A stretch of 32,000 bases of DNA from Crocosphaera subtropica ATCC 51142 (GCF_000017845.1 NC_010546.1:3750001-3782000), one strand, 5' to 3'. Shown: positions 2,770-32,000, counted from the first letter of the stretch. Notes: generated by a model from the sequence alone, not told the origin. Numbers and translations: made by a program.

Positions 2770-4278
2770 ATGAAAGAAGAGCTAAACATACTAATACAAG
2801 CTCAGTATCCTCTAATATATCTTGTTACGTCAGAAGAACAAAGAGCAGAGCAGGCGATCGCTAAGATTGCTCAACAATATAGTAAGCATCGGCGCGTCTT
2901 TTCTTGGACTGTGACCCACGGAATGGTTGAATACGGACAGCCAGGAAATGCTACTCAACATAATACAGTTCATGCTGAACCAGCGATTAGTTGGGTAATC
3001 CGTGAAAAAGAACCAGGGATTTTCATATTCAAAGATTTGCACCCCTTTATTGCTGATGCCAACGTTACTCGTTCTTTGCGGGATGCCATCATCAGCTTAC
3101 GGGGAACAGAGAAAACGATTATTCTGATCTCTCCCCTACAACAGATTCCTATAGAACTAGAAAAAGACGTTGTTGTTCTCGATTTTCCTTTTCCCGATTT
3201 AAGCGAACTCAATCAAGTTTTATCACGACAACTGGAGCAAGCTAGAAGTAACCGCATTACTACCGATGCTCGTGAAAAGCTCCTCAAAGCGACCCTAGGA
3301 TTAACCAAGGATGAAGCAGAGAAGGTTTATCGAAAAGCTTATGTTAAAGCGGGTCGTCTGACAGAGGAAGAAGTTGACATTGTTTTGTCAGAGAAGAAGC
3401 AACAGATTCGCCGAAATGGAGTTCTTGATTACATCGAAGAAGATGAAACCATTAATGCTGTTGGTGGTTTAGAAGAACTGAAGAAATGGCTCAAACAAAG
3501 GTCTGGAGCCTTTACAGAAAGAGCCAGAGAATATGGTTTACCCCAACCCAAAGGAATGTTGATTTTAGGGGTTCCAGGATGTGGAAAGTCTCTGATTGCG
3601 AAAACAACCTCTCGGTTATGGGGATTACCCTTGCTGCGGTTGGACTTAGGTAGAGTCTATGACTCGGCGGTGGGTCGTTCCGAAGCCAATCTAAGAAATG
3701 CCTTGAAAACAGCTGAATCCATTTCCCCTGCCATCCTCTTCATTGATGAATTAGATAAGGCTTTTGCTGGCAGTGCTGGCTCAGCTGATTCCGATGGAGG
3801 AACATCAAGCCGAATTTTTGGTTCCTTTTTAACCTGGATGCAAGAAAAAACCTCACCGGTATTTGTAATGGCCACAGCTAACCGTGTTGAACGGTTGCCA
3901 GGAGAGTTTTTACGCAAAGGAAGATTTGACGAAATATTCTTTGTGGACTTGCCTAGTTTAGAAGAACGTCAAGCTATTTTCAATATTCACCTTACTAAAC
4001 GTCGCTCAGATATTTCTCGCTTCGATATTGAGCAACTGTCTAAGGTATCCGATGGATTTTCTGGTGCAGAGATCGAGCAGGCTATCATTGCAGCCATGTA
4101 TGAAGCCTTTGCTCAAGATAGGGAGTTTACGCAGCTTGATATTATTGCTGCCATTAAATCGACTCTCCCCTTATCTCGCACCATGACTGAACAGGTTACT
4201 GCCCTGCGGGACTGGGCGCGACAAAGAGCGCGACCTGCTTCAGCCTCCGTCGCTGAATACCAGCGATTGGAGTTCTAA
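2770..4278 (+). CDS. ycf46: AAA+ ATPase of the Ycf46 family (N-terminal ~230-aa domain of unknown function plus one classical AAA module)
   Basis: Walker A GVPGCGKS (nt 3568-3591), Walker B ILFIDELD (from nt 3733), and sensor/Arg-finger region ATANRVERLPGEFLRKGRFDE. The 502-aa length and the N-terminus (LNILIQAQYPLIYLVTSEEQRAEQAI) match the cyanobacterial/plastid Ycf46 pattern as I remember it. Confidence 0.85.
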   Translation: MKEELNILIQAQYPLIYLVTSEEQRAEQAIAKIAQQYSKHRRVFSWTVTHGMVEYGQPGNATQHNTVHAEPAISWVIREKEPGIFIFKDLHPFIADANVTRSLRDAIISLRGTEKTIILISPLQQIPIELEKDVVVLDFPFPDLSELNQVLSRQLEQARSNRITTDAREKLLKATLGLTKDEAEKVYRKAYVKAGRLTEEEVDIVLSEKKQQIRRNGVLDYIEEDETINAVGGLEELKKWLKQRSGAFTERAREYGLPQPKGMLILGVPGCGKSLIAKTTSRLWGLPLLRLDLGRVYDSAVGRSEANLRNALKTAESISPAILFIDELDKAFAGSAGSADSDGGTSSRIFGSFLTWMQEKTSPVFVMATANRVERLPGEFLRKGRFDEIFFVDLPSLEERQAIFNIHLTKRRSDISRFDIEQLSKVSDGFSGAEIEQAIIAAMYEAFAQDREFTQLDIIAAIKSTLPLSRTMTEQVTALRDWARQRARPASASVAEYQRLEF

Positions 4279-4414
4279 CAAGCTTTCACCTGCTCCCAAC
4301 AGGTGTAAAGGCTAGTCACAAGCTAGCAGCCTATAAAACGTCGTCCCTATGAGACGGCACATTCAAACCCTAAATTGTTGTTGTTAACTTCTGTTCTACT
4401 GGAGGAAATCGAAA

Positions 4415-4768
4415 ATGTCTCACTTTAGCACTCTGCGCACCAAAATCACAGATGCTGAAATTTTAAAAGCTTCTTTACGGGATCTCGGTATTTTTGTTAA
4501 GACCGATGCTGATGTAAGAGGTTATAACGGTCAGCGCGTTCGTTCTGATATTGTTGCTGTTCTTGATGGTGAATACGATCTCGGCTGGTCTCGCAATAGC
4601 GATGGTAGCTTTGATCTAATTGCTGACCTTTGGGGTGTTGCTAAGAAGCACAACCAAACCGAATTAATCAACTCCATCAATCAAAAGTATGCTGTTAACA
4701 AGACCTTAGCAGAAGTTAAGCAGCGTAACTTAGGCAAAGCTAATATCAATTTAGTTCTTCACAGCTAA
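4415..4768 (+). CDS. DUF1257 (Ycf35-like) small protein
   Basis: The N-terminus MSHFSTLRTKITDAEILKASLRDLGI is the typical DUF1257/Ycf35 signature. GGAGGA lies 8 nt upstream of the ATG. Same strand as the AAA+ gene. Confidence 0.8.
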   Translation: MSHFSTLRTKITDAEILKASLRDLGIFVKTDADVRGYNGQRVRSDIVAVLDGEYDLGWSRNSDGSFDLIADLWGVAKKHNQTELINSINQKYAVNKTLAEVKQRNLGKANINLVLHS

Positions 4769-19508: not shown

Positions 19509-20504
19509 ATGATTGAAGTCGAACATTTAAGTAAAATTTACGGGTCAACTGCGGCCATTGAAGATGTGGACTTTTCCGTGGAAAAAGGGGAAATTCTCGG
19601 TTTTTTGGGACCCAATGGAGCAGGAAAAACCACCACCATGCGTATTTTAAGCGGTTATATTCCTGCTACTACCGGAACCGCTAAAATTGCAGGATACGAT
19701 GTTCATGAAAACTCCTTAGCAGTCAGAAGAAACATCGGTTATCTTCCTGAAACGCCTCCTCTGTATCCAGATATGACCGTAGAAGGGTTTTTGAAGTTCG
19801 TCGCTAGAATTAAAGGAGTCCCATCAGGCGATCGCCATTCTAGGGTAAATTGGTCGATGGAACGCTGTCAACTCGAAGATAAGCGCAAAGTTTTGATTCG
19901 TAAGCTATCTAAGGGTTATAAACAACGAGTGGGTATTGCTCAAGCCATTGTTCATGATCCCCCTGTTATTATTTTAGACGAGCCAACCGTAGGATTAGAC
20001 CCTAAACAAATTATTGAAGTGCGTAACCTCATTAAAAGTTTGGCAGGAGAACATACGATCCTCTTATCAACTCACATTCTACCAGAGGTCAGTATGACCT
20101 GCGATCGTGTCACCATTATCAATAGTGGTAAAGTCGTCGCAACGGATACCCCTGATCATTTAATGTCCCATCTAACAGCAAAAGGAGGTTATGAAATCGA
20201 AATCGAAGGGGATATATTCAGTTTAGAACCTCTATTAAGGAATCTTCCTGGAATTACCCAATTAGAAATTAAATCTAATAGTCAAACAAAACGTCATGTT
20301 TTATTATTAACCACTGACTCAAATCAAGAGATAGGAAAAGACATTGCTGCGTTGATTGTTAATCAAGGGTTGGGATTACATGAAATGAAGCGAACTCGTG
20401 CGACTTTAGAAGATGTTTTCTTGAACCTAATTACCGAAGAATCATCACTAGACTCCCAAGAAGAAAAATCATTAGAAACTGTTGATACTGAACAAACTTT
20501 ATAA
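19509..20504 (+). CDS. ABC-2 type transporter ATP-binding protein (GldA-like)
   Basis: Walker A GPNGAGKTT, signature LSKGYKQRV, Walker B VIILDEPTVGLD, and a C-terminal extension. It is the first gene of a tightly packed 4-gene operon. Confidence 0.9.
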   Translation: MIEVEHLSKIYGSTAAIEDVDFSVEKGEILGFLGPNGAGKTTTMRILSGYIPATTGTAKIAGYDVHENSLAVRRNIGYLPETPPLYPDMTVEGFLKFVARIKGVPSGDRHSRVNWSMERCQLEDKRKVLIRKLSKGYKQRVGIAQAIVHDPPVIILDEPTVGLDPKQIIEVRNLIKSLAGEHTILLSTHILPEVSMTCDRVTIINSGKVVATDTPDHLMSHLTAKGGYEIEIEGDIFSLEPLLRNLPGITQLEIKSNSQTKRHVLLLTTDSNQEIGKDIAALIVNQGLGLHEMKRTRATLEDVFLNLITEESSLDSQEEKSLETVDTEQTL

Positions 20505-20515
20505 CTATTTTTGAG

Positions 20516-21301
20516 ATGATATTAACTAATTTAATTGCTATTTTCCGCAAAGAATTTCAAAGTTATTTTACGTCTCCCTTTGCTTATATTATTGCTGCTG
20601 TTTTTTGGTTAATTGGCGGTTTCTTTTTTAGTGCCATTTTAGAAGAGATTTTACAAACCCTATCATTTTTAGAACAAAGTGGTCAGTTATCAACTCCTGT
20701 GGACGTTCCGGGTCAATTCATAGATAGTTTTTTTGGAGTCATTATTTCTCTTCTATTAGTGTTATTACCTGCTTTATCTATGGGATTATATTCCGAGGAA
20801 AGAAAGCGGGGAACCTTGGAATTACTAGCTACTTCTCCCGTAACCAATTGGGTGGTTGCTGTCGGAAAATTATTAGGGGTTTTAGCCTTTTTTGTTGTTT
20901 TGATGATACCTTTTTGGATTTATGAGATTATTCTCTTTAGTAATGCTAGTCCTCCTATTAATCTAAACATTATTTTATTGTCTCATGGGTCTTTAATTTT
21001 AATTGCGACTGCTATTCTTTCTCTGGGAATGTTTATTTCTTCTTTAACTGACAGCGGAATTTTAGCTTATATTTTGACCTTTATTTTAATATTATTCTTG
21101 TGGATTATGGATGCGATCGCTGCTAATTTACAGGAACCTTTTAAAACTATTTTATCCTATCTTTCATTATTTGATCGTTACACTGATTTAGTTAAAGGAG
21201 TTTTAGATGTCAGTAGTTTAGTTTTATTTGCTAGTTATATTTTATTAGGCATTTTCTTGACCGCACAATCTATTGAAGCATTACGTTATCAACGTTCTTA
21301 A
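20516..21301 (+). CDS. ABC-2 type transporter permease (GldF-like)
   Basis: Six-TM protein with EERKRGTLELLATSP, the motif typical of ABC-2/GldF-type permeases. It starts 11 nt after the ATPase stop. Confidence 0.85.
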   Translation: MILTNLIAIFRKEFQSYFTSPFAYIIAAVFWLIGGFFFSAILEEILQTLSFLEQSGQLSTPVDVPGQFIDSFFGVIISLLLVLLPALSMGLYSEERKRGTLELLATSPVTNWVVAVGKLLGVLAFFVVLMIPFWIYEIILFSNASPPINLNIILLSHGSLILIATAILSLGMFISSLTDSGILAYILTFILILFLWIMDAIAANLQEPFKTILSYLSLFDRYTDLVKGVLDVSSLVLFASYILLGIFLTAQSIEALRYQRS

Positions 21302-21336
21302 AATGTTATAAAAAATCTTAAAAATATTATTGGAAT

Positions 21337-23244
21337 ATGAAAAAAATAAGTAACTACAAAACTATTCTCAAATATTTATTCATTCCTGGGTTAATTTTAA
21401 CTGTTGCTGGTTTAGTTCCTCTTTTTATTACTAAAACTCAGAGTATTCTTTATCTCAGTTTAGTGATTGCAGGAGGTATATTCTTATTTATCTGGTTAAT
21501 CTATTTATTAGTAACAGGAAGAAGTTTTTGGCAGAAAAGATCAACACAAACAGGGACAAATGCTTTTGTTTCTGTCTTATCTTTAGTGATTATATTGGGA
21601 TTAATTAATTTTATTGCGGTTCGTTATTCTCCTCGTATTGATTTGACCGAAAATCAACTTTATACTTTATCCCCAGAAACGCAAGAAATCGTTAAAAATC
21701 TAGACAAACCGACTAAAGTTTATGTTTTTGACAAGGAAATAACTCCTCAAGATGAAGATTTATTAGAAAATTATCAACGTTACAATAATAACTTTCAATT
21801 TGAACTGATTGATCCTGATATTAAAGTGGGACTGACTGAACAGTTTAATGTTCAATCATTAGGAGATGTTTATCTAGAATATGGAGATAAAAAACAATTA
21901 GTTCAAACCTTAATTGTTTTTAATCAAAGGGAACCCTTATCAGAAATCAAACTAACCAATGCAATTGAAAAAATCAAGAAGGATTATATTCCAAAAATTT
22001 ATCTATTACAAGGTCATGGGGAATATTCCTTAGAACCCTCCCCCGAAGGAAGTTTATCAGAAGCAACCAACAGTCTTGAAAGTAAAGGATATGAAGTTAA
22101 CCCCTTAAACTTAGTAGAAAATGCAGGTATTCCTGATGATGCAGATGTCATTATTATTGCCAGTCCAAAACGTCAATTATTTGAGCAAGAAGTGACAGCA
22201 TTAAAAGAGTATTCTGAACAAGGTGGTAACTTATTTTTATTACTCGATCCTAACACAGATCCAGGGTTAGAACCTATACTAAAAGACTGGGGAATTCAAT
22301 TAGATAATCGTATTATTATAGATGGTTCAGGGTCAGGAAATATTGTCGGTTTAGGACCAACAACTCCCTTTATTACTAACTACGGGAACCACCCAATTAC
22401 AGAAGAATTTGCTAATAGTATTTCTTTTTATCCGTTATCTCGTCCTGTAGATACGGTTGAGGTAGAAAACATCGAAGCAACCTCTTTATTAGTCACGAAT
22501 GAACAAATGTGGGCTGAAAGTAATTTAGAATCAGAAGAAGTTATTTTTGATCCCGAAGAAGACATTCCTGGACCTTTTGATTTAGGAGTTGCATTAACCC
22601 GTACAATTGATAAAGAAGTAGTCAATAATGACACAAAAGAAGATAATCAAAATAGTGAAACAAATGAAGGAATTGAAAATTTAGATGAATCTGAAAACAA
22701 AGAAATAGAAAATAATAATAATTCTGAACAAGAAACGGAGGAACAAAATCAGTCAGATTCTTCTGATAATGAAGTTAATAATAATACTGAACAAGAAAAG
22801 GATGATAACAATAGTGAAACTATCAATAATCAATCTGATGTAAATGAAGAGGAAACAGAAGGTAATAATAACTCTGACTCATCAGTTAATGACGAAACCA
22901 ATAAAAATCAAAAAGAAGAAAATACGTCTAACCCTTCTAATAATGAACAAAATAATAACCCTGAAAAAGAGCAAATCGAATCTCGTTTAGTAGTAATTGG
23001 AAATTCTACCTTTGCTACTGATAGTTTATTCAATCAACAATTAAACGGAGATGTCTTTTTAAACTCTGTACAATGGTTAAGTAATCAAGATGATCAACCT
23101 CTATCCATTCGTCCCAAGGAACCAAAAGATAGAAAACTAAATTTATCCCCCTTACAAGCTAATATAATCACCATATTGTCCCTGGGTATTGTTCCTTTAT
23201 TGGGGTTAATTGCTGCTGGAATAACCTGGTGGCGAAGAAGATAA
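21337..23244 (+). CDS. GldG-like ABC-transporter auxiliary protein with a ~120-aa acidic low-complexity insertion
   Basis: N-terminal TM helices, the GldG-type core (RIDLTENQLYTLSPET...IYLLQGHGE...LFLLLDP...SFYPLSRP...RLVVIGNSTFATD) and a C-terminal TM anchor. The N/E/D/S-rich insertion is encoded at about 22618-22980. Confidence 0.85.
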   Translation: MKKISNYKTILKYLFIPGLILTVAGLVPLFITKTQSILYLSLVIAGGIFLFIWLIYLLVTGRSFWQKRSTQTGTNAFVSVLSLVIILGLINFIAVRYSPRIDLTENQLYTLSPETQEIVKNLDKPTKVYVFDKEITPQDEDLLENYQRYNNNFQFELIDPDIKVGLTEQFNVQSLGDVYLEYGDKKQLVQTLIVFNQREPLSEIKLTNAIEKIKKDYIPKIYLLQGHGEYSLEPSPEGSLSEATNSLESKGYEVNPLNLVENAGIPDDADVIIIASPKRQLFEQEVTALKEYSEQGGNLFLLLDPNTDPGLEPILKDWGIQLDNRIIIDGSGSGNIVGLGPTTPFITNYGNHPITEEFANSISFYPLSRPVDTVEVENIEATSLLVTNEQMWAESNLESEEVIFDPEEDIPGPFDLGVALTRTIDKEVVNNDTKEDNQNSETNEGIENLDESENKEIENNNNSEQETEEQNQSDSSDNEVNNNTEQEKDDNNSETINNQSDVNEEETEGNNNSDSSVNDETNKNQKEENTSNPSNNEQNNNPEKEQIESRLVVIGNSTFATDSLFNQQLNGDVFLNSVQWLSNQDDQPLSIRPKEPKDRKLNLSPLQANIITILSLGIVPLLGLIAAGITWWRRR

Positions 23245-23267
23245 AATTAGCAATTAAGAGGTTAATT

Positions 23268-23828
23268 ATGAAGTTAAAAAATACAACTTGGATTTTATTA
23301 GGGGTCGCTATTATTTTAGGGGTTGGAGTTTATGTTTATGAATTACAAATAAATCCCCAACAAGAACAAATTGAAGCTACCAATAAACAACTATTTACTT
23401 TTGATGAAGATGACATCAAAGCATTAACTATTGAAACAGAAGATCAAACCTATAAATTTGAGAAAACCAGTGATGAAAATCAACCTTGGCAAATGAAAGA
23501 ACCCCAAGATACAGTTGCTAATGATGCAGTGATTTCTTTTTTAACTAATCTTTTAGTTACGAGTGAAAGTGAGAGAACACTAACCGTTCCTCAAAATCAG
23601 AAAAAAGACTACGGTTTAGATAAACCATTAGGAATAATTACTATTGAACTTGAGAATGAAAAACAACATAAAATAGTCCTAGGTAAGCTTAATTTTCAAG
23701 GAGAATTATTATATGCTCAAATTGACAGTTCGTCTCCATCTCAAGAAGAAATTACCATTAACTTAGTCCCGAAAAATTTTCAATATGCAGTGGATAGACA
23801 ACCAGAAGAATGGACTAAAAATAAATAA
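23268..23828 (+). CDS. DUF4340-like single-pass membrane protein
   Basis: The ATG at 23268 has GAGG 9 nt upstream (MKLKNTTWILLGVAIILGVGVYVY). The region FTFDEDDIKALTIET...WQMKEPQDTVANDAVISFLTNL, and the position immediately after a gldG-like gene, match the usual DUF4340 context. The protein is shorter than typical family members. Confidence 0.65.
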   Translation: MKLKNTTWILLGVAIILGVGVYVYELQINPQQEQIEATNKQLFTFDEDDIKALTIETEDQTYKFEKTSDENQPWQMKEPQDTVANDAVISFLTNLLVTSESERTLTVPQNQKKDYGLDKPLGIITIELENEKQHKIVLGKLNFQGELLYAQIDSSSPSQEEITINLVPKNFQYAVDRQPEEWTKNK

Positions 23829-23936
23829 TATATTTTCAGATTAATTTTATAATCTAATCAAAAACTAGGGAACGGCATCTTTGTTTAATAAGTCTCATCA
23901 ATAAGATGGGAAAACAAAGACAAAACTACAGTGATC

Positions 23937-25625
23937 ATGAATAATTTTCGTGCTATATGTATAGGAATAGAAGACTATTTACATTATCAACCCTTAAACG
24001 GATCTGAAAATAGCGCACAAGCACTTTATCGCTACTTCTTTGAAGAAGCTAACATCCCATCTCATCAATTATTATTACTGACTGATACCTCTCCCTCCCC
24101 AGGAAAACGATCAACCTATCCTAACCGAGATAATATTTTACAATGGATTAATGATAGTCCCATTAAAGTTGAATATTGCTGGTTTTTCTTTCAAGGATAC
24201 GGTATTAATTATCAAGGAGAAGACTACTTACTACCGATCGATAGTAACTTAAACACTATTCCCCAAACAGCTATAAAAGTGCGATCGCTTTTTGAAAAAT
24301 TACAAAATAGTAGCCAAAATTTACTCATCATTTTAGACTTACAAAATCCTTTAAAAGATGGGAAATTAGGACAAATAACTTTAGATTTAGCTCAGAAAAA
24401 AAATATTTCTTTGATTTTTTCTTGTCGTTCCCATGTTTATCAAAGCATTAGTGCAGAAAAAAGTATCTTTATTACTGCCTTAACCGAAGCTTTGCGCTAC
24501 TATAGTCATCATTTAACCCTTCATAAGTTAGACGCTTACTTCAAAGAAAGATTAAATCCTTCCCATCAAAAGGATTTTCCAGCGATCGCCCTTCCCATTA
24601 TTATTAGTCCTGAAACGATTCGTCATCAACCCCTATTACCTGCTTCTAAAAAGCCAATACTAGACAATCAAGAAAATCAAGCCCTATCGTTCAAAATTCA
24701 ACAAAAACCCCATCAAAGCCCTGACCAAAAGCCCACAAGTACCCTAATCTTACCTAAGATCCCATCAACCCCTTTCAAACCCCAACTGTCCTTAAATATC
24801 CCTCTGACGCAAACTAACATTAAACCGAGTTCTCCTGCTGCTTCTTTACCTTCTGTTTCCTCAACTGCCACAACAACCCCTGAACCTTCAAAAAAGTCAT
24901 CCCTAGGAAAATACTGGTTATGGATAGGAGGAATATTAGCAACAACCGCCGTTGTATGGTGGATGTCTCTGAAAATTGGTCAACATCTCAATGCTATCAA
25001 TTATCAAAAAATTCAAGAAAACCAACAGATTTTAGACTATGGGAAAATTTCCTTAAGTGTGCAACAAGCATCCCAATTTAACCAAGCTATTAGCTATGCA
25101 CGACAAATTCAACCCCATACAGCCCTGTATCAGCAAGCTCAGGTCAAAATTAACCAATGGAGCCAAATGATCCTAGATATTGCCCAAGGAAGAGCGATTA
25201 TAGGGGATTTTCAAGGGGCGATCGCAGCCATTAAACTGGTTCCTCCCGATAACCAACAACTTTATAATTTGGCACAACAATCTTTAAAAGAGTGGCAAAC
25301 CCTCAGTCAACAACAACACGATAATCAAGTTTTAATTGAAGCTGCCCTATCTTTAATTGAACCCAACCAAGCATCATCTTATAATCGAGCCATTAGACTC
25401 CTAAAACACTTAGAGAAAAAAGAGTTAGGTTATCATCATGCCCAAAAATTGATTGAACAATTAAGTAAAAACATATATCAATTAGCGCAAACCAGGGCCC
25501 AACAAGGACAATTAACCTTAGCCATTGAAACCATTGAATTAGTCCCCAATGATACTCAAGTTTATTCAATGGCACAAGAAGCAAAAATAAACTGGCAACA
25601 ACATCTTAATCGTACATCTAACTAA
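23937..25625 (+). CDS. Pseudo-orthocaspase: caspase (C14)-like domain with both catalytic residues substituted, Pro/Ser linker, one TM helix, C-terminal repeat domain
   Basis: The p20-like layout is AICIGIEDY...GSENSAQ...CWFFFQGYG...EDYLLPID...LLIILDLQNP. The canonical SGHG His is Tyr90 (TAC 24198-24200). The canonical D-x-C Cys is Gln138 (CAA 24342-24344). TM helix YWLWIGGILATTAVVWWMSL. The C-terminus has three copies of a motif ending ...LVP(P/N)D.Q.Y..AQ....W. ATG at 23937 (GTG at 23931 also possible). Confidence 0.7.
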   Translation: MNNFRAICIGIEDYLHYQPLNGSENSAQALYRYFFEEANIPSHQLLLLTDTSPSPGKRSTYPNRDNILQWINDSPIKVEYCWFFFQGYGINYQGEDYLLPIDSNLNTIPQTAIKVRSLFEKLQNSSQNLLIILDLQNPLKDGKLGQITLDLAQKKNISLIFSCRSHVYQSISAEKSIFITALTEALRYYSHHLTLHKLDAYFKERLNPSHQKDFPAIALPIIISPETIRHQPLLPASKKPILDNQENQALSFKIQQKPHQSPDQKPTSTLILPKIPSTPFKPQLSLNIPLTQTNIKPSSPAASLPSVSSTATTTPEPSKKSSLGKYWLWIGGILATTAVVWWMSLKIGQHLNAINYQKIQENQQILDYGKISLSVQQASQFNQAISYARQIQPHTALYQQAQVKINQWSQMILDIAQGRAIIGDFQGAIAAIKLVPPDNQQLYNLAQQSLKEWQTLSQQQHDNQVLIEAALSLIEPNQASSYNRAIRLLKHLEKKELGYHHAQKLIEQLSKNIYQLAQTRAQQGQLTLAIETIELVPNDTQVYSMAQEAKINWQQHLNRTSN

Positions 25626-25788
25626 TACTAGATACTGCACTGTCATTGCGAATGTAGCGGTAGCGGCATGAAGCAATCTCTATGTCTATGGTAAGTAGTC
25701 GAACATAAATGTATTTTTTAGATTGCTTCGGGGTATTTTTAGTAACAATCAAAGCTTTAACATCGAGCGAAGTCGAGATGTACTGTTT

Positions 25789-25901
25789 ATATAGCGTTTC
25801 TTGGACTCATGAGGTACACCTAATATTTAACTCCTGACTCCTGACTCCTGACTCCTAAAACTAGAAAATGGTGTACCTCACAAGTATGAGAACTGCTATA
25901 T
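25789..25901. repeat. MITE-like element: 32-bp imperfect inverted repeats flanking a (CTCCTGA)x3 heptamer core
   Basis: The left arm 25789-25820 and right arm 25870-25901 are complementary at 25 of 32 positions, with the first 11 (ggtgtacctca) perfect. The core 25831-25856 is ctcctga x3 plus ctcct. No coding capacity. Confidence 0.6.
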
Positions 25902-26182
25902 TACCCCTCGCAATGCGGTGCGACCCCGCGCCTTCGTAATGCACAAGGGAAGGCGCACCAAGACGACAAGTTAAGTCTCTAATAACTTTCGAGAATTGGC
26001 ATAAGATAGCAATTCCTTTAACTGCCATTCAGCGGAAACCAGCAATCTCAGTAATATTATGCAGTTTATACTTAAACTTAACTCAATCGACCTTTTTTTA
26101 GACAAAATTTACTGAATACCGTAAATTAGAAAATCCTTAAATTTACTGTTTTTATTTAATAAATTCATAGGAATAATAGAGG

Positions 26183-26198
26183 AGTGACCAATATCACT
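26183..26198. promoter_or_regulatory. Candidate CRP-family (SYCRP1-type) binding site, AGTGA-N6-TCACT
   Basis: AGTGACCAATATCACT matches the palindromic core GTGA-N6-TCAC of TGTGA-N6-TCACA (8/10). A GATAAT -10-like hexamer at 26243-26248 lies downstream with a poor -35. The site is ~150 nt upstream of the first pilin-like gene. Pattern match only. Confidence 0.3.
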
Positions 26199-26343
26199 AA
26201 ATTATCTCCTATTAAATCACTGCTGTTGGTGACTCCCTCTCTGATAATAAGCACCAGGTCTAGCAGGTAAAAACTAGGTCCATATTGTCGTAGTTAGTGC
26301 TTTAAGACTACCAGTATTTTATAGTAACTTTAGGACGAAAATT

Positions 26344-28212
26344 ATGAATACAAGATACACAGAAACTTTTTTGTTTCTCTCTCGCCTTTCCCGTAGAAGT
26401 AACAAAGGCTTTGCTTTGGGATTTGTGTTAACGGCTGGCGTTCTCATGGCAGCAACCGGGGCTGTTATGTTACTCAGAAGTAGCAGCGAACAAGAAAAAG
26501 TTATAGCGCAAGGAGCTACTGCCCAAGGCAAAACCAGTGGAGAAGTTGCTATTGCTAGAGTACAATTTCTTCTCGCTAGATATCCCTTTCTCGCTCAATA
26601 TGATAGTTCTCAATGGAGCAATGTAGCTAATCCCAGTACAGATATTGGACAAGACTTTGAAGAACACATTGAGATCACAAATAATACAGGTGGTCGAGAA
26701 AGTTCTTGTGCAAGTGAAAGTGAAGAAGATAGCAGTGAAGTTTTAACCCCTGAACAACAGCAAGCTGAGATTATTAGCTACGTTGATACATACACATCAG
26801 ATTTAAGTCCTTATGAGCAATCAGGCCAAAGCAAATGGCAACAAATCGATACCACGAATTCTAGTCAGGTAGATTTCAGACTTATTAGTTATAACGCTCC
26901 TGAATCAGTACCAGGTATGGGAGAGTTAAAACTTCAGAGCATGGCGAATCGAGACAAACAATTCAAAGAATCGCCTACTCAATTAACTGTAACTATTCCA
27001 GTAAAACAAAATGAGACAACAACGGAAGTTGAAGAAGGAGATACTCCTGGCCTCTGGACTCAACAGGGAAAAGTTATCAAAGGTAGTGGGGGAGGTGGTA
27101 ATAAACACTGGGCTGCCCATATTTGGGTCAGTGATCCTTGTTATAGTCAGAAACCAGATGATCCAGCAACTTTAGAAGTGTTAGAAGATATAGAAGACGA
27201 AACTTTACTCAGTTACAACGGGAAAACCTATAAACCACCTATTGTTAAAGATATGGATTTTCCTGAGTTTCCTGAATTTCCTACTGATCTTCCTGCAAGT
27301 CAAGTCAATGTGACTGTCTCAAGTGGCAATGGCAATGGCAATGGCAATGGCAATAAAAAAGCTAGTAGCTATCAAGATAGTTATTTCTCTACTGTTGCCA
27401 GTGTGATGAATGGGTTTGTGGATAAAGCATTTACTAAAATTTTCGGTGGTGTTGCTTTAGCTAAAAATGGCAACGGTAAGGGCAAGGGTCTAGTTGATGA
27501 CATCACTGATACCACGAATGATGTAGTCGATGACATCACTGATACTACAAATGATATAGTCGATGATCTCACGAATACAGAGAATACAAACGATACCACC
27601 AATGTTGGTGGCGGGGCTGTTTGTGGAAATAACAGTGCTAATGCTGCCAATGGAAGCGTATTTCCCAGAAATGGAGATACAGGTAAGATAGTCAAAGTCG
27701 GCAATGAAGACGTTTGCGTTTATGAATATATCTGGAATCAAACCCCCAGTGATACGACCATTCAAACTGTCAGCCAAGATGGTAAACGTCAAAAGGTAAT
27801 TTTCTACATAAAAGATGGAGTCGATTTTGATCTCAAAGGCAACGAGAAAATTCTCAAAAACTGTGGGGATTTTGACGACAATGCGGATCTCTGTAGACCA
27901 ACGGATTTCCAAATATTTGCCCAAGGAACTGGCAATTTTTGTTTAAGTGGTGCTGTGGTTATGGATGCCTTTGTTTTTGCTCCAGAACGTCATTCTGGAG
28001 TCAATGGAGGACCAAAAGGAGCCTTGAGAGGAACCATTTGGGTGAAAGGATGGAATACTTCTAGCTGTGGTTCTAATGGTAATCATCTTCACGTTACTCA
28101 AACAGGAAACTGGTCAGATTTTTATGGGGTAAAAAACCCTGAAGCCGGTCCGTCCATTGTTATTGGACAACCTGCCACCGTTAAAACTGAAGCCTTTAAT
28201 CCCGATATATAA
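26344..28212 (+). CDS. Large (622 aa) PilX_N-type pseudopilin-like protein, paralogue A, with internal tandem repeats
   Basis: The class-III-like N-terminus is RRSNKG|FALGFVLTAGVLMAATGAVMLL (no Glu at +5), followed by ...AQGKTSGEVAIARV as in PilX N-terminal domains. It is colinear with the next gene. It contains the GNGNGNGNGN and VDDITDTTND repeats. Confidence 0.75.
   Translation: MNTRYTETFLFLSRLSRRSNKGFALGFVLTAGVLMAATGAVMLLRSSSEQEKVIAQGATAQGKTSGEVAIARVQFLLARYPFLAQYDSSQWSNVANPSTDIGQDFEEHIEITNNTGGRESSCASESEEDSSEVLTPEQQQAEIISYVDTYTSDLSPYEQSGQSKWQQIDTTNSSQVDFRLISYNAPESVPGMGELKLQSMANRDKQFKESPTQLTVTIPVKQNETTTEVEEGDTPGLWTQQGKVIKGSGGGGNKHWAAHIWVSDPCYSQKPDDPATLEVLEDIEDETLLSYNGKTYKPPIVKDMDFPEFPEFPTDLPASQVNVTVSSGNGNGNGNGNKKASSYQDSYFSTVASVMNGFVDKAFTKIFGGVALAKNGNGKGKGLVDDITDTTNDVVDDITDTTNDIVDDLTNTENTNDTTNVGGGAVCGNNSANAANGSVFPRNGDTGKIVKVGNEDVCVYEYIWNQTPSDTTIQTVSQDGKRQKVIFYIKDGVDFDLKGNEKILKNCGDFDDNADLCRPTDFQIFAQGTGNFCLSGAVVMDAFVFAPERHSGVNGGPKGALRGTIWVKGWNTSSCGSNGNHLHVTQTGNWSDFYGVKNPEAGPSIVIGQPATVKTEAFNPDI
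27325..27354 (+). repeat. Hexanucleotide microsatellite (GGCAAT)x5 encoding (Gly-Asn)5
   Basis: A perfect 5-unit repeat inside paralogue A. A degenerate echo, aatggcaacggtaagggcaagggt, lies at about 27466-27489. Confidence 0.9.
27493..27591 (+). repeat. In-frame 33-bp tandem repeat x3 (VDDITDTTNDV / VDDITDTTNDI / VDDLTNTENTN)
   Basis: The units are 27493-27525, 27526-27558 and 27559-27591. The first two differ at only a few positions and the third is more diverged. Confidence 0.9.
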
Positions 28213-28232
28213 ATGTAATCCCAATCATTCTT

Positions 28233-28274
28233 TACCTCTGACTGAAATCACAGTTAGAGGTAGTCCAATTTTTT
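28233..28274 (+). terminator. Intercistronic terminator-like hairpin between the two large paralogues
   Basis: TACCTCTGACT (28233-28243) pairs with AGTTAGAGGTA (28252-28262), giving an 11-bp stem with one G-U and an 8-nt loop. T6 at 28269-28274 follows 6 nt later. It could act as a partial terminator or a processing site. Confidence 0.4.
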
Positions 28275-28302
28275 CGATAATGACTTGTTTCCCAACAATG
28301 CT

Positions 28303-29709
28303 ATGAATCTCAAGTTAAAACTATTATTACTCAATCGCAATAACGACCAAGGAATGGCGTTAGCCTTCGCTTTAAGCATCGGTGTAATCATGATGTTAGC
28401 CGGAACCATCATGATTGTTCGTTCTCAAACCGATCAAACCCATGTTCAAGCACAACAAAGTACAGCAGAAAGCGTCAGTGCTGCTGAAGTTGGAGCAACC
28501 CGTATTTTTTCCTTGCTGAATGAAAACCGTTACCTAGCTATGTATCCTGACTGTAACAGTCGAGACATTAACGGACTGTGTGGCGATACGGGAACTACCC
28601 CCAGTTGGGCTAATGCCATTAATGTTCCTAAGCTTACGGTTTGTGAAGAAGGCAAAGCAACAAATGTTCGGGAGATTGCCCTTAACCAAGACTGGCAACC
28701 CATCGATCCTAATAATACAAAACAAGGAGAATACCGATTACTGTCTTACGAATATGCTAACCCTGGAATTGCACCTGGGAAGGGTAAATTAACCGTAGAA
28801 GGACGAATTCGCGCCCATAACGACTTTACTGGTTCTGTGAGTCAACTGACCGTAGAAATTCCCGTTTCTCCTGGCCCAGTCGAAGGTACGCCTATTCCTG
28901 GCGTGTGGTTAAACGATGATCCCACCGATGCCACAGGGAATAACGGGGTTGAAGGAGATGTCTTGATGGGCAACTGTAACTTGACCAAAGAACAACTCGC
29001 TGAACTTAATGTGACAGGAACCGATCCTCAAACCGGTCAACCTTACCAAGCCAAGCATACAAATTTAGAATTCCCTGATCCCCCTGAAATTCCCTCCACT
29101 GCTATTTATTTAGGGGTAGTTGGAGAAAACAAAGACGGAACATTAGCTGGTATTTCAGGAGACATTACCTTACCCAGAGTGGGAGATACTCCTGTCACCA
29201 AAACCATTAACAACAAAACCGTTGAGGTTTATGAATACGAAGTAGAAGAAATTAATTTTGATTCAGGTTCCCATTCTCTAACCATCGAACCTGGCAAAAA
29301 AGTCACCCTCTATCTTAACGGCAGCATGATTGTCAAGAGTAACAGTGGCATTATTCATAGTTGTACCAACTCTGACGGAACTCCTATTGCTGGTTGTTTA
29401 CCCACAGACTTCCAAATTTATGGCCTTGGGGATGCCACTAATACCATTTGCACCGCAGGAAATAAACGCATCGAAGCCTTTATTTTTGCTCCAGAATACA
29501 TTGTAGGAACGGCTGGCACCGGCGGAGGACAAGGCGGTATTAAAGGGACGATTTGGGCAAAGGAATGGTCCAATAGTAAGTCTTGTGGTTCACAAACGAG
29601 TAATACGGCGGTAGTTCAGACCGCAAGATGGGAAGACTTAGGATTAGAACCTAAAAATACCCCTCCTCTATTATCCAATACCTCCAGTTGGAAGCGTAAC
29701 CAAAGATAA
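28303..29709 (+). CDS. Large (468 aa) PilX_N-type pseudopilin-like protein, paralogue B
   Basis: The ATG at 28303 gives MNLKLKLLLLNRNNDQG|MALAFALSIGVIMMLAGTIMIV (no Glu+5), then ...STAESVSAAEVGATRI. It shares YRLLSY/FRLISY, SQLTVEIPV/TQLTVTIPV, VEVYEY/VCVYEY, C.PTDFQI(Y/F), EAFIFAPE/DAFVFAPE, GTIW.K.W and SCGS with paralogue A. Confidence 0.75.
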   Translation: MNLKLKLLLLNRNNDQGMALAFALSIGVIMMLAGTIMIVRSQTDQTHVQAQQSTAESVSAAEVGATRIFSLLNENRYLAMYPDCNSRDINGLCGDTGTTPSWANAINVPKLTVCEEGKATNVREIALNQDWQPIDPNNTKQGEYRLLSYEYANPGIAPGKGKLTVEGRIRAHNDFTGSVSQLTVEIPVSPGPVEGTPIPGVWLNDDPTDATGNNGVEGDVLMGNCNLTKEQLAELNVTGTDPQTGQPYQAKHTNLEFPDPPEIPSTAIYLGVVGENKDGTLAGISGDITLPRVGDTPVTKTINNKTVEVYEYEVEEINFDSGSHSLTIEPGKKVTLYLNGSMIVKSNSGIIHSCTNSDGTPIAGCLPTDFQIYGLGDATNTICTAGNKRIEAFIFAPEYIVGTAGTGGGQGGIKGTIWAKEWSNSKSCGSQTSNTAVVQTARWEDLGLEPKNTPPLLSNTSSWKRNQR

Positions 29710-29748
29710 GGGGAAGACTAATTTTATTGTTGTCCAGGTACTTACACC

Positions 29749-30558
29749 ATGAACAAACCACTACTCACCTTACTACTTTGTCCCTCAAAACCAAATAATG
29801 ATCAAGGTTTTAGTCTTTTTGAAGTTACTATTGCCATCTTAGTGTCCTCAGCCTTTTTGATGGGAACCTTACAAGCAATGACCATTAATGCTGTCATGCA
29901 AATTAAATCAGAAAGACAAGCTAAAGCTAACTTTATCATTCAACAAGATATCGAAAAATTACAGGCCGCAGCCAGTAGTATGGATCTTGACTATATCGAA
30001 AACAATCTTAACCCCGATGGGAAAAGTAAATCCCAACTTTGCTTTCGTTTTAAAATTCCTAATATGGCAGATGTCCGTTTTGGGGCTGATTTAGTCAAAG
30101 AATTGGATGATATTCTAACAAATGACAGCGAACCTAGCACTAAATCTGATCCAGCTATCAATACTAATACAGTTTTTTCCTCTGCTCAAACCTTCAATCA
30201 GTTCAAAACTGATGCTGATGGCAATGTTCTTTATACCAATGGTCAACCAGTATTGAATGAACAAAAAGATTCTGTTGAAACGAGCGACAGTAAAAAAGTC
30301 GTAGTCCAAATATTAATGAACGACGATATCCTCAACAAAAACTATCGTCTTGTTCGATTAATGACAGTCGATAGCAGCACCAGATACGACGTTTTACAAG
30401 TTTATTATCGAGTCGGAGAACCCTATGACCCCAATGATCCCAACCAAACAGATAACGACAGCGACAGACTACGGGATGATCAATCTGGTAGAAAATCAAT
30501 CATCGCCGAAAATTATACAGAAGTTATTCCGGCCGCTGTTGCTGAGTGCGGTTTCTAA
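29749..30558 (+). CDS. Prepilin-type minor pilin, PilV-like
   Basis: MNKPLLTLLLCPSKPNNDQG|FSLFEVTIAILVSSAFLMGTLQAM has the canonical G|F-x-x-x-E class III signal with a hydrophobic helix. The Cys is near the C-terminus. The subfamily call is tentative. Confidence 0.7.
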   Translation: MNKPLLTLLLCPSKPNNDQGFSLFEVTIAILVSSAFLMGTLQAMTINAVMQIKSERQAKANFIIQQDIEKLQAAASSMDLDYIENNLNPDGKSKSQLCFRFKIPNMADVRFGADLVKELDDILTNDSEPSTKSDPAINTNTVFSSAQTFNQFKTDADGNVLYTNGQPVLNEQKDSVETSDSKKVVVQILMNDDILNKNYRLVRLMTVDSSTRYDVLQVYYRVGEPYDPNDPNQTDNDSDRLRDDQSGRKSIIAENYTEVIPAAVAECGF

Positions 30559-31081
30559 TCCCAATCAAGGAGTAACCCTTCTAGAAATCATCATTGCTGC
30601 CGTCATTACTGGCATCTTAGCTGCGATCGGCATTCCTAGCTTGATGGGAATGCTACAAGGAGATCAAGTTAAACAAGGGGTTGATCAAATTCAACTGGCC
30701 TTACAAGATGCTCAAAAACAAGCCATCCGTAACTCCAAACAATGCACTATTATCATCGATAAAACCGCCACTCCCCCTACCATTGACATCAAAGATCCCC
30801 ATCTTCCTAATAATCAAGGTTGTTTAGGTTCGGTTGAGCGAACATTACCTAACAATGTGGTTATGACTGGCAATTTTACCAACAATGAGGTCAGTTTTTC
30901 TTTTAAAGGGAATACAACAACAATGGGTACCATTGTCGTCAAACCGGCTAAAGGTGGCGGGGAAAAAAGATGTTTAGTCATGGGTTTAGGACTAGGCCTT
31001 ATGAGAACAGGAATTTACGATTCAAGCGCATCTGATAATCCTCCTAGTGCGACTAATTGCAAGAAAGTAACAGACAGTTAA
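30539..31081 (+). CDS. Prepilin-type pseudopilin, GspH/FimT-like
   Basis: NPNQG|VTLLEIIIAAVITGILAAIGIPSLMGMLQGDQVKQGVDQIQLALQDAQKQAIRNSKQCTI fits the GspH/FimT pattern. No ATG lies near the signal. I place the start at the TTG at 30539 (11-aa leader), overlapping the upstream gene by 20 nt. The start is uncertain. Confidence 0.65.
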   Translation: MLSAVSNPNQGVTLLEIIIAAVITGILAAIGIPSLMGMLQGDQVKQGVDQIQLALQDAQKQAIRNSKQCTIIIDKTATPPTIDIKDPHLPNNQGCLGSVERTLPNNVVMTGNFTNNEVSFSFKGNTTTMGTIVVKPAKGGGEKRCLVMGLGLGLMRTGIYDSSASDNPPSATNCKKVTDS

Positions 31082-31090
31082 GAAAAAATC

Positions 31091-32000
31091 ATGTTAAAAA
31101 TCTATTTAAAACTCTTACAAAAATATCGTCCTTCTGCTGGCTGGACTTTAGCAGAATTAATCATTGCATCCGCCATGACTTTGATCGTGGTTATGGTAGC
31201 AGGGTTTAGTTTAGTGACTATTTTACGGGAAAACAAAGTGGCTAATGCTACAGGCCAAATGCAATATGACATGAATAGGGCAACGGAATTTATCTCAGAA
31301 GAAATTCGTGGTGCCAAAACCATTGAAACCGATCAAGCAGTAATTTATAATGCTGCCCCAACCTTTTATAAAAAATACGTTGAAGGGAAAGCCAATCCGA
31401 AAATTCCTATCTTAGCTTTGAAAATCGATGGGGTTTATGAGCGAGTTGTGTATTATGTCGACGAAGTGGCTGATGGAGAAATTTGGCAAGGTCCTGGAGT
31501 CATTCGACGCTTTGGCCCAGCATTCACGGCTACAGGTGAACACGATGATGCACAGAAAAGAACCCCCGATACCTGGCAGAGTAGTGCGCTCGTAGACATG
31601 ATGGTAACAACGTTAGATACTCCGCAAAAACAATGTCAAAATTTACCCCCTGATGTAGTGAGTGCTAATACTTATGTTGCTACCGATGATCAAGGAAATC
31701 AATGGTATCGTCTTCCCCAAAAAGAAGCAGACGTGAAAGGGTTTTTTGTTTGTGTCCAAGAAAATAAACAATTGGTGCAATTGAATATTGTTGGTACAAG
31801 TTTGGATGAATTCGCACATTTAGGCTATGACAAAAACGATATTTCAGAAGGCAAGTCCCGTTACGCCGACAAGATGGAGTACAATATCGCTACCATGGTT
31901 CATGCTCGTTCTGAAGCTATTGGTGGTGGCGGAGAAGCGGTTCCCGATTTTTTAGTCAGTCAGCAAATTATTAAATTACAAGAAAGTGGTAAGGCAAAAC
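31091..32000 (+). CDS. Prepilin-type minor pilin, PilW-like; 3' end outside the window
   Basis: This ORF is not in the supplied track. I translated from the ATG at 31091 and found no stop through nt 32000 (303 codons): MLKIYLKLLQKYRPSAG|WTLAELIIASAMTLIVVMVAGFSLVTILRENKVANATGQMQYDMNRATEFISEEIRGAK. It starts 9 nt after the previous stop. The track ORF 31102..31323 (-) lies antisense inside it. Confidence 0.75.
   Translation, partial: MLKIYLKLLQKYRPSAGWTLAELIIASAMTLIVVMVAGFSLVTILRENKVANATGQMQYDMNRATEFISEEIRGAKTIETDQAVIYNAAPTFYKKYVEGKANPKIPILALKIDGVYERVVYYVDEVADGEIWQGPGVIRRFGPAFTATGEHDDAQKRTPDTWQSSALVDMMVTTLDTPQKQCQNLPPDVVSANTYVATDDQGNQWYRLPQKEADVKGFFVCVQENKQLVQLNIVGTSLDEFAHLGYDKNDISEGKSRYADKMEYNIATMVHARSEAIGGGGEAVPDFLVSQQIIKLQESGKAK

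Follow-up and report, generated by a model that had tools for sequence, protein, structure and literature searches.

A locus of five consecutive prepilin-type genes

The 32,000-nt stretch of the Crocosphaera subtropica (formerly Cyanothece sp.) ATCC 51142 genome analyzed here (NC_010546.1:3750001-3782000, hereafter the window) ends in five consecutive + strand genes, g1 to g5, which encode candidate minor pilins. g1 (26344-28212, 622 amino acids (aa)) and g2 (28303-29709, 468 aa, or 474 aa from an alternative TTG start upstream at 28285) were 100% identical to cce_3646, found on a 4.93-Mb contig, and cce_3647, respectively. Both were classified as PilX-type minor pilins without Glu at position +5 (Glu5), g1 being a fast-evolving upstream paralogue and g2 the conserved copy, with a predicted beta-solenoid (DUF7305). 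They are followed by g3 (29749-30558, 269 aa), a minor pilin with Glu5 that occupies the PilV position, by g4 (30539-31081, 180 aa in the gene call, with alternative starts at 30425, giving the longest open reading frame (ORF) of 218 aa, or at 30476), a minor pilin of the FimT/FimU/GspH type, and by g5 (31091-32000 in the window), a Glu5 minor pilin of the PilW/GspJ/HpsC type. The window holds the first 303 of the 480 aa of g5; its full length was read from an identical 13-kb Logan contig (L001), where the gene ends at a position equivalent to ~32533. Spacers from g1 to g5 were 90, 39, -20 (an overlap) and 9 nt, in line with the 9-90 nt and one overlapping junction given in a preliminary description of the locus.

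The same description had proposed to look beyond nt 32000. Downstream of g5, L001 carries a gene for an OppC-type permease, after which come DUF2997, DUF1257, ferredoxin, RluD-like and PlsY genes; the operon is complete at five genes. A Crocosphaera metagenome-assembled genome (MAG; L004) carries the same five genes with other genes downstream, and because synteny breaks after g5 in this way, the module was taken to consist of these five. No major pilin, PilB/T ATPase, secretin or PilY1 domain was found in the window, as had been described, or in the 6.5 kb downstream. Type II secretion system (T2SS) machinery genes (GspD/E/F) were likewise absent from the window, which also had no Rfam match. 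We found no mention of cce_3646 to cce_3650 or of DUF7305 in the literature.

All five proteins begin with a short polar leader ending in Gly, followed by ~20 hydrophobic residues, which is the class III signal peptide pattern. The N-termini and the residues at +5 were as previously described: g1 (...SNKG/FALGF) and g2 (...NDQG/MALAF) have Phe and no Glu at this position, and g3 (...NDQG/FSLFE), g4 (...PNQG/VTLLE) and g5 (...PSAG/WTLAE) have Glu. A prepilin regular expression was run over the window's 34 stop-to-stop segments of 100 aa or more and matched near the N-terminus in all five genes; one further segment had the pattern at position 47 with Arg at +5, and the two remaining matches were internal membrane helices.

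Profile searches gave matches of graded strength. g4 exceeded the cut-offs of Pfam N_methyl (25.2 bits, cut-off 21.2), Pfam GspH (23.2 bits, cut-off 21) and TIGR02532, and had ComGD, PpdA and GspH models among its further, sub-threshold matches in the NCBIfam scan. g3 scored 17.6 bits with N_methyl, under the cut-off, and faintly matched the PilV model TIGR02523. At E up to 0.01, N_methyl matched 15 of 20 g3 orthologues and 13 of 18 g5 orthologues, the latter with faint GspJ and ComGF similarity. N_methyl (PF07963 or TIGR02532) did not match g1, g2 or g5 of the window strain, g1 had no Pfam or NCBIfam match whatever, and no GspI, GspJ or GspK match was above threshold among the five proteins. 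PilX_N, the Pfam family by which the two large proteins had been labeled, matched neither g1 nor g2, and 1 of 25 relatives at E 0.063. Of the profiles that had been put forward for checking, N_methyl and GspH were matched above cut-off by g4; PilX_N and PilW were not. A profile search of PDB sequences with g3, g4 and g5 matched N-terminal helices only.

The C-terminal extension of g5, ~200 aa long (L001 6070-6660, equivalent to 31943-32533), matched no family. We considered a PilY1-like propeller fused to g5 and dropped it, since the similarity of the C-terminus to designed "Pizza" propellers (E about 0.2) was noise. In a Chroococcidiopsis MAG, a PilW-type protein of 693 aa (L018 4868-6949) carries a DUF4082 C-terminal add-on (E 2e-55). 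The PilW-type proteins of this lineage, with their variable C-terminal add-ons, look like modular pilins.

Family, gene order and regulation of the PilX-type proteins

Judged by their alignments, g1 and g2 are colinear full-length paralogues, which had been noticed before from the motifs that they share. BLASTP aligned their N-terminal parts at E 2e-19 and their C-terminal parts at E 2e-13 (27-38% identity), and ortholog alignments of the two were matched by hhalign over 423 columns (probability 100%, E 1.5e-72). The listed motifs can be seen in these alignments. The shared C-terminal module, earlier considered unassignable, corresponds to Pfam DUF7305: g2 scored 32.1 bits against a gathering cut-off of 27, g1 itself gave no match, and 20 of 25 diverse relatives scanned were matched, upstream-type copies among them. 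When 1.84 billion cluster representatives were searched exhaustively with HMMER, 1085 representative clusters matched the g2 family at an E-value of 1e-3 or lower and 415 at 1e-30 or lower, mostly full-length proteins of 450-550 aa, several of which carry the JGI name "Tfp pilus assembly protein PilX". A homologue search with a wide PilX profile added only three further proteins (P0043-P0045), none with a model-organism name.

The AlphaFold2 model of g2, built with 24 homologues, had a predicted local distance difference test score (pLDDT) of 79.9 and a predicted TM score of 0.71. It consists of a helix (19-74), three sheet strands (143-189), a beta-rich region (~201-438) and a last strand (464-467), so that g2 is modeled as a pilin helix and sheet bearing a beta-solenoid. 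The Foldseek search of the PDB that had been suggested for the large proteins placed Thermus thermophilus ComZ (6QVI, E 1e-6, probability 1.0), a competence-associated tip pilin, first, followed by fungal and bacterial ice-binding beta-solenoids. ComZ and g2 have in common the pilin fold with a large inserted beta-solenoid; they differ in phylum and operon context, and their similarity is not detectable by sequence (identity 10%, global TM score ~0.25). The PilX profile had no match among PDB sequences.

A scan of GTDB species genomes with the g2 family as query found 24 loci. By BLASTP of g1-g5 against the ORFs of these loci, about 20 of the 24 had the order pilX-g3-g4-g5. They come from Chroococcales, Nostocales, Chroococcidiopsis, Gloeocapsa and Halothece, with Trichormus azollae, Aphanizomenon, Pannus and Snowella among them; g3 stood directly after pilX in all related loci. 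This order, X-V-T-W, is the standard cyanobacterial gene order for this lineage. It does differ from fimU-pilVWXY1E, as had been pointed out, but it is not unusual. A second, adjoining pilX was present in a subset, namely Crocosphaera, Cyanothece BG0011, a Microcystaceae MAG, strain SU2, Pannus and Halothece. The upstream pilX copies formed their own clade in a neighbor-joining tree, separate from the g2-type clade, which indicates that the duplication is old. Stand-alone pilX genes of the g2 type (56% identical), with neither neighboring minor pilins nor the exact operator core described below, were also observed (L009 8983-10395; L014 8902-10431), and a Crocosphaera MAG with the five-gene operon was among the genomes also bearing one. 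They recall the dispersed pilX1-3 genes of Synechocystis.

Upstream of the operon, 147 nt before the g1 ATG, lies a candidate CRP-type operator, GTGACCAATATCAC (26184..26197), with the core GTGA-N6-TCAC. The exact core occurs once in the window, where 0.34 matches were expected. Of 22 matches in 391 kb, made up of the window and 22 related loci, 16 had a pilX-like start no more than 300 nt downstream, and these were spread over 15 of the 23 loci; the counted upstream intervals make up ~3% of the sequence and chance expectation was below 1. The sites are near the ideal palindrome (e.g. CGTGATCTAGATCACA) and often close to TGTGATCnAGATCACA (L004-L028). In four Crocosphaera genomes the box is part of a conserved block of ~230 nt, and in Crocosphaera the conserved box precedes g1, not g2. 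The exact core was absent from the Nostocales, Chroococcidiopsis, Gloeocapsa and Halothece loci and from the region before the two stand-alone pilX genes. A CRP site, TGTGATCCAGATCACA, has been described at -189 of Synechocystis slr0442 (PilX2) (Xu and Su 2009, PMC2633013), a gene activated by SyCRP1 (10.1101/2020.12.15.422378), and the box in the window resembles it. A conserved CRP box before pilX operons, as suggested by these comparisons, is new here, though partly anticipated, and offers a testable regulatory handle.

A candidate -10 element, GATAATA (26242..26248, + strand), is located within the block ATAATAAGC, which is invariant in four Crocosphaera strains and belongs to the same conserved ~230 nt as the box; a simple sigma-70 scan did not pick it up. 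Beyond this element a conserved 5′ untranslated region (UTR) runs to 26343. The operon promoter is probably under the putative cAMP-CRP (SyCRP-type) operator at 26184-26197. A 16-mer CRP pattern with two mismatches showed no enrichment in the window (10 found, 14 expected), leaving the exact core alone informative, and a CRP-like site with one mismatch at 28237-28252 was rejected as an operator, being part of a hairpin between g1 and g2 and not conserved in L004. The hairpin itself (28232..28263, + strand) has 13 bp and a T-run (dG -19.4 kcal/mol, z -3.3) and is terminator- or attenuator-like; it is not conserved in L004 either. Read-through may be attenuated at this hairpin and the g1:g2 ratio set by it.

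Probable assignment to the minor pilins of a type IVa pilus

The gene content probably represents the complete core minor-pilin set of a cyanobacterial type IVa pilus, with two PilX caps, PilV, a FimT/GspH adapter and PilW: a large pilin without Glu5 is co-located with three Glu5 pilins, one of which is GspH/FimT-like. Following the established GspK-I-J/H and PilX-V-W/FimU models, PilD would cut the leaders after Gly, PilV and PilW would pair in the inner membrane, and the Glu5-less PilX would be placed on top as the terminal subunit. FimT would join this tip complex to a major pilin encoded elsewhere, by which assembly would be primed and the complex would stay at the tip. The beta-solenoid inserted in PilX could then act as a bulky apical plug or adhesin, the job done by PilY1 in proteobacteria. 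That the large paralogues stand in for PilY1 at the tip had been the central inference of the preliminary description, and the modeled fold of g2 with its ComZ match, the GspH match of g4 and the X-V-T-W order argue for it.

This inference is an already published hypothesis and not a new one, and the locus, which had been presented as a candidate undescribed module, has an architecture on record. Oeser et al. reported a hypothetical gene directly beside pilA5 homologues in many cyanobacteria, and described Slr0226, Slr0442 and Sll1268 as PilX-like pilins with a hydrophobic residue at +5, RntA resembling Slr0226 (10.1101/2020.12.15.422378). Schuergers et al. sorted the pilins of 90 cyanobacteria into six families, with Com and EPS lineages, and found complete PilX-PilV-PilW-FimT sets in one locus; in their analysis all cyanobacterial PilX bear a triangular beta-solenoid like that of ice-binding proteins, as in ComZ, and they proposed that this solenoid serves as the "tip plug" in place of PilY1, a protein generally lacking in cyanobacteria (10.64898/2026.02.12.705559). 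The modeled architecture of g2 matches that published for cyanobacterial PilX. Neither Cyanothece nor Crocosphaera is named in the main text of the two papers. What is new here is modest: the tandem hypervariable PilX, the conserved CRP box, and a PilW whose C-terminal part matched no family. According to the 2026 preprint, several PilX paralogues could not be assigned to specific tip complexes, and two neighboring PilX caps, one conserved and one hypervariable, bear on this question. The assignment also provides an annotation, as a compact and complete minor-pilin priming set, for five "hypothetical" genes of the diazotroph model ATCC 51142; no new kind of machine is revealed.

The closest known counterparts are the Com-type sets, i.e., PilA5-8 with PilX1-3 (Slr0226, Slr0442, Sll1268/Slr1268) in Synechocystis, RntA/RntB with PilA3/PilW in S. 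elongatus, and tll2333-35 in T. vulcanus. Like the Crocosphaera locus, which was compared with these proteins by description, they have a Glu5-less beta-solenoid PilX adjoining PilV, a FimT, a PilW and no PilY1, more than one PilX paralogue per genome, and a CRP box before pilX, as at slr0442. Crocosphaera differs in having all members and a second PilX in one operon, whereas the pilX genes of Synechocystis are dispersed and the S. elongatus set is spread over two loci. Two further differences in Crocosphaera are an upstream PilX whose body is hypervariable between close strains and the extra C-terminal part of PilW. The Pseudomonas aeruginosa fimU-pilVWXY1E and Myxococcus minor-pilin/PilY1 clusters follow the same logic, four core minor pilins forming the priming or tip complex with a Glu5-less PilX at the apex. 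Compared with the P. aeruginosa cluster, however, the locus has neither PilY1 nor PilE, is ordered X-X-V-T-W and not U-V-W-X-Y1-E, has PilX proteins 3-4 times larger owing to the solenoid, and leaves Pfam PilX_N, PilW and PilV unmatched. With GspH-I-J-K of type II secretion it shares the GspH match of g4 and a large Glu5-less subunit that equals GspK in role, but no GspI, GspJ or GspK is above threshold and no GspD, GspE or GspF genes are nearby.

Given the overall assignment, we favor the Com lineage over Hps/EPS with reasonable confidence, since PilX adjoins PilV, the size of g2 is moderate, and slr0442 has a CRP box too. In T. vulcanus, deletion of the Com-type locus abolishes transformation and deletion of the EPS-type locus abolishes motility (10.64898/2026.02.12.705559).

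Several points weigh against these assignments. The PilV and PilW cut-offs of Pfam and NCBIfam were not reached by g3 and g5; the PilV type of g3 is suggested by its position and the published classification together with faint N-terminal matches, and the PilW type of g5 mainly by position and equally faint N-terminal matches. The best match of g5 was to HpsC, an EPS-locus model (30 bits, E 4e-7, cut-off 200), in a PilW family that the preprint does not divide into Com and EPS. For g1, the AlphaFold2 model was poor (pLDDT 56.8) and a Foldseek search with this low-confidence model found nothing significant, and for these reasons its family assignment rests on homology to g2. The terminator-like hairpin between g1 and g2 means that g1 may not be fully co-transcribed with g2-g5. 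Finally, the Com label derives from exclusion of Hps, synteny as described in the papers and the CRP box, with references compared by description only, and the main source for the lineages is a preprint that is not peer reviewed.

The foremost alternative is that the set is of the EPS/Hps type, the equivalent of Synechocystis pilA9-pilA12 or Nostoc hpsA-D, and primes long adhesive motility pili or a polysaccharide-secretion pseudopilus. Besides the sub-threshold HpsC match of g5, the enlarged g1 (622 aa) with its extra low-complexity inserts would fit such a set, as would the remark in the preprint that function does not strictly follow the Com and EPS labels. HpsA-D of Nostoc punctiforme and PilA9-PilA12 also form a pilin-like four-gene module with a large PilX-type leader. 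However, the HpsC score is far below its cut-off, HpsA, HpsB and HpsD, like every other Hps model, did not match g1-g4 at E up to 1, and g1 and g2 have no similarity to HpsA. Orthologues in two Nostocales genomes failed every Hps cut-off as well; they are thus distinct from the hps genes that these genomes have, and the lineage is not that of the hps locus, while PilX adjoining PilV and the slr0442/PilX2-like CRP box fit the Com lineage. We therefore regard an EPS/Hps-type set as unlikely. The earlier analogy with cyanobacterial minor-pilin loci holds in that the locus is related to them, but probably not in the type named, pilA9-slr2019 or hps: the Hps cut-offs were reached neither here nor in the Nostocales orthologues.

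The variable first paralogue and the surrounding sequences

Identity to the Cyanothece sp. BG0011 orthologues (BLASTP, aa) was 36% for g1, 88% for g2, 75% for g3, 65% for g4 and 57% for g5, and 87% for a caspase-domain protein encoded upstream. Across the same genomes, g1 orthologues were 36-41% identical and g2 orthologues 70-88%, and the ranks of similarity disagreed: g1 was closer to XPORK-15E (41%) than to BG0011 (36%), and g2 closer to BG0011 (88%) than to XPORK-15E (70%). In a sliding comparison of the window with L005 and L006, nucleotide identity was 0.88-0.93 over the promoter, 5′ UTR and first ~250 nt of g1, 0.35-0.6 over the g1 body (26600-28250), and back at 0.8-0.89 in g2. The g1 body is a hypervariable island between conserved flanks at 0.85-0.93, an observation new in this work. 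The 22-residue leader MNTRYTETFLFLSRLSRRSNKG and the alpha-1 helix were nearly invariant even at 40% overall orthologue identity. Most of the extra length of g1 is a low-complexity insert (residues ~291-443), and Tandem Repeats Finder detected two in-frame repeats on the + strand, a 6-nt repeat at 27324..27354 (5.2 copies, 100% matches) encoding (GN)5 and a 33-nt repeat at 27491..27566 (2.3 copies, 90% matches) encoding VDDITDTTNDx.

It is very unlikely that only g2-g5 form the functional operon, with g1 being a duplicate that is redundant or in decay, or else a surface protein transcribed on its own: the low identity of its orthologues next to neighbors at 55-88%, a body near unalignable as DNA, the inserts and tandem repeats, the hairpin 3′ of the gene and the single pilX of most related loci would suit this view, but the reading frame was intact (586-622 aa) in every Crocosphaera genome examined, the conserved Cys, Trp, Pro and Gly positions and solenoid motifs were retained, the leader, alpha-1 helix, promoter and 5′ UTR were strongly conserved, the upstream copies form an old separate clade, and the CRP box stands before g1 and not g2. 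With the frame unbroken throughout and the Cys, Trp and Pro positions kept, the pattern suggests an exposed domain that diversifies or exchanges alleles, not a decaying gene.

Neither g1 nor g2 has Glu5, and the two would compete for a single apical position, so they are most likely alternative caps, g2 the conserved housekeeping one and g1 a strain-variable one. More tentatively, the solenoid body of g1 (~residues 85-622) might be swapped or diversified between its conserved flanks, with the promoter, 5′ UTR, leader and alpha-1N helix before it and g2 after it, giving two kinds of tip on one PilV-PilW-FimT base. If this is the case, one CRP-controlled operon builds a conserved tip with g2 and a hypervariable tip with g1, the latter adapted to a ligand particular to the strain, or variable as an escape from grazers or pilus-specific phages, and the in-frame repeats add length variation.

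The 5′ UTR and first ~80 nt of g1 (26250-26420) were almost invariant as DNA among the three Crocosphaera sequences compared (the window and the equivalents in L004 and L005). A hairpin in the UTR, CCAGGTCTAG...CTAGGTCC, keeps its pairing through a two-sided change in L005 (three sequences compared), and a perfect hairpin, AGAAAC-TTTTTT-GTTTCT, lies within the g1 leader codons. This nearly invariant region, with its hairpins, may be subject to RNA-level control.

The caspase-domain protein upstream (23931-25625, + strand, 564 aa; Peptidase_C14 E 1e-10) has a transmembrane segment and a repeat-rich C-terminus. By eye, FQGYG and LDLQNP replace the usual catalytic His and Cys motifs, and the protein may be an inactive pseudo-orthocaspase. 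Directly 5′ of its gene is a four-gene unit (19509-23828, + strand) encoding an ABC ATPase, an ABC-2 permease, a GldG-like auxiliary protein (ABC_transp_aux, DUF7088) and a 199-aa ORF; its position is kept in L004, where the last ORF is DUF4340. The caspase-domain and ABC-transporter genes were considered as module members and dropped, as the synteny is confined to close Crocosphaera relatives; the caspase-domain gene is syntenic with the pilin operon in these relatives only.

Between the caspase-domain gene and the operon, the intergenic sequence at 25700-26000 is an insert specific to this strain, its nucleotide identity to L005 and L006 being 0.07-0.21. Within it lies the heptamer ACTCCTG in 3.9 copies (25830-25856) between the arms of a 10-bp inverted repeat, GAGGTACACC (~25811) and GGTGTACCTC (~25871), and the insert has the look of a small mobile element or repeat. 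Two DUF1257 genes are found close to the locus, one (4415-4768) behind an AAA ATPase gene (region 2770-4768) and the other downstream of the operon in a DUF2997-DUF1257-ferredoxin trio (L001 8176-9255).

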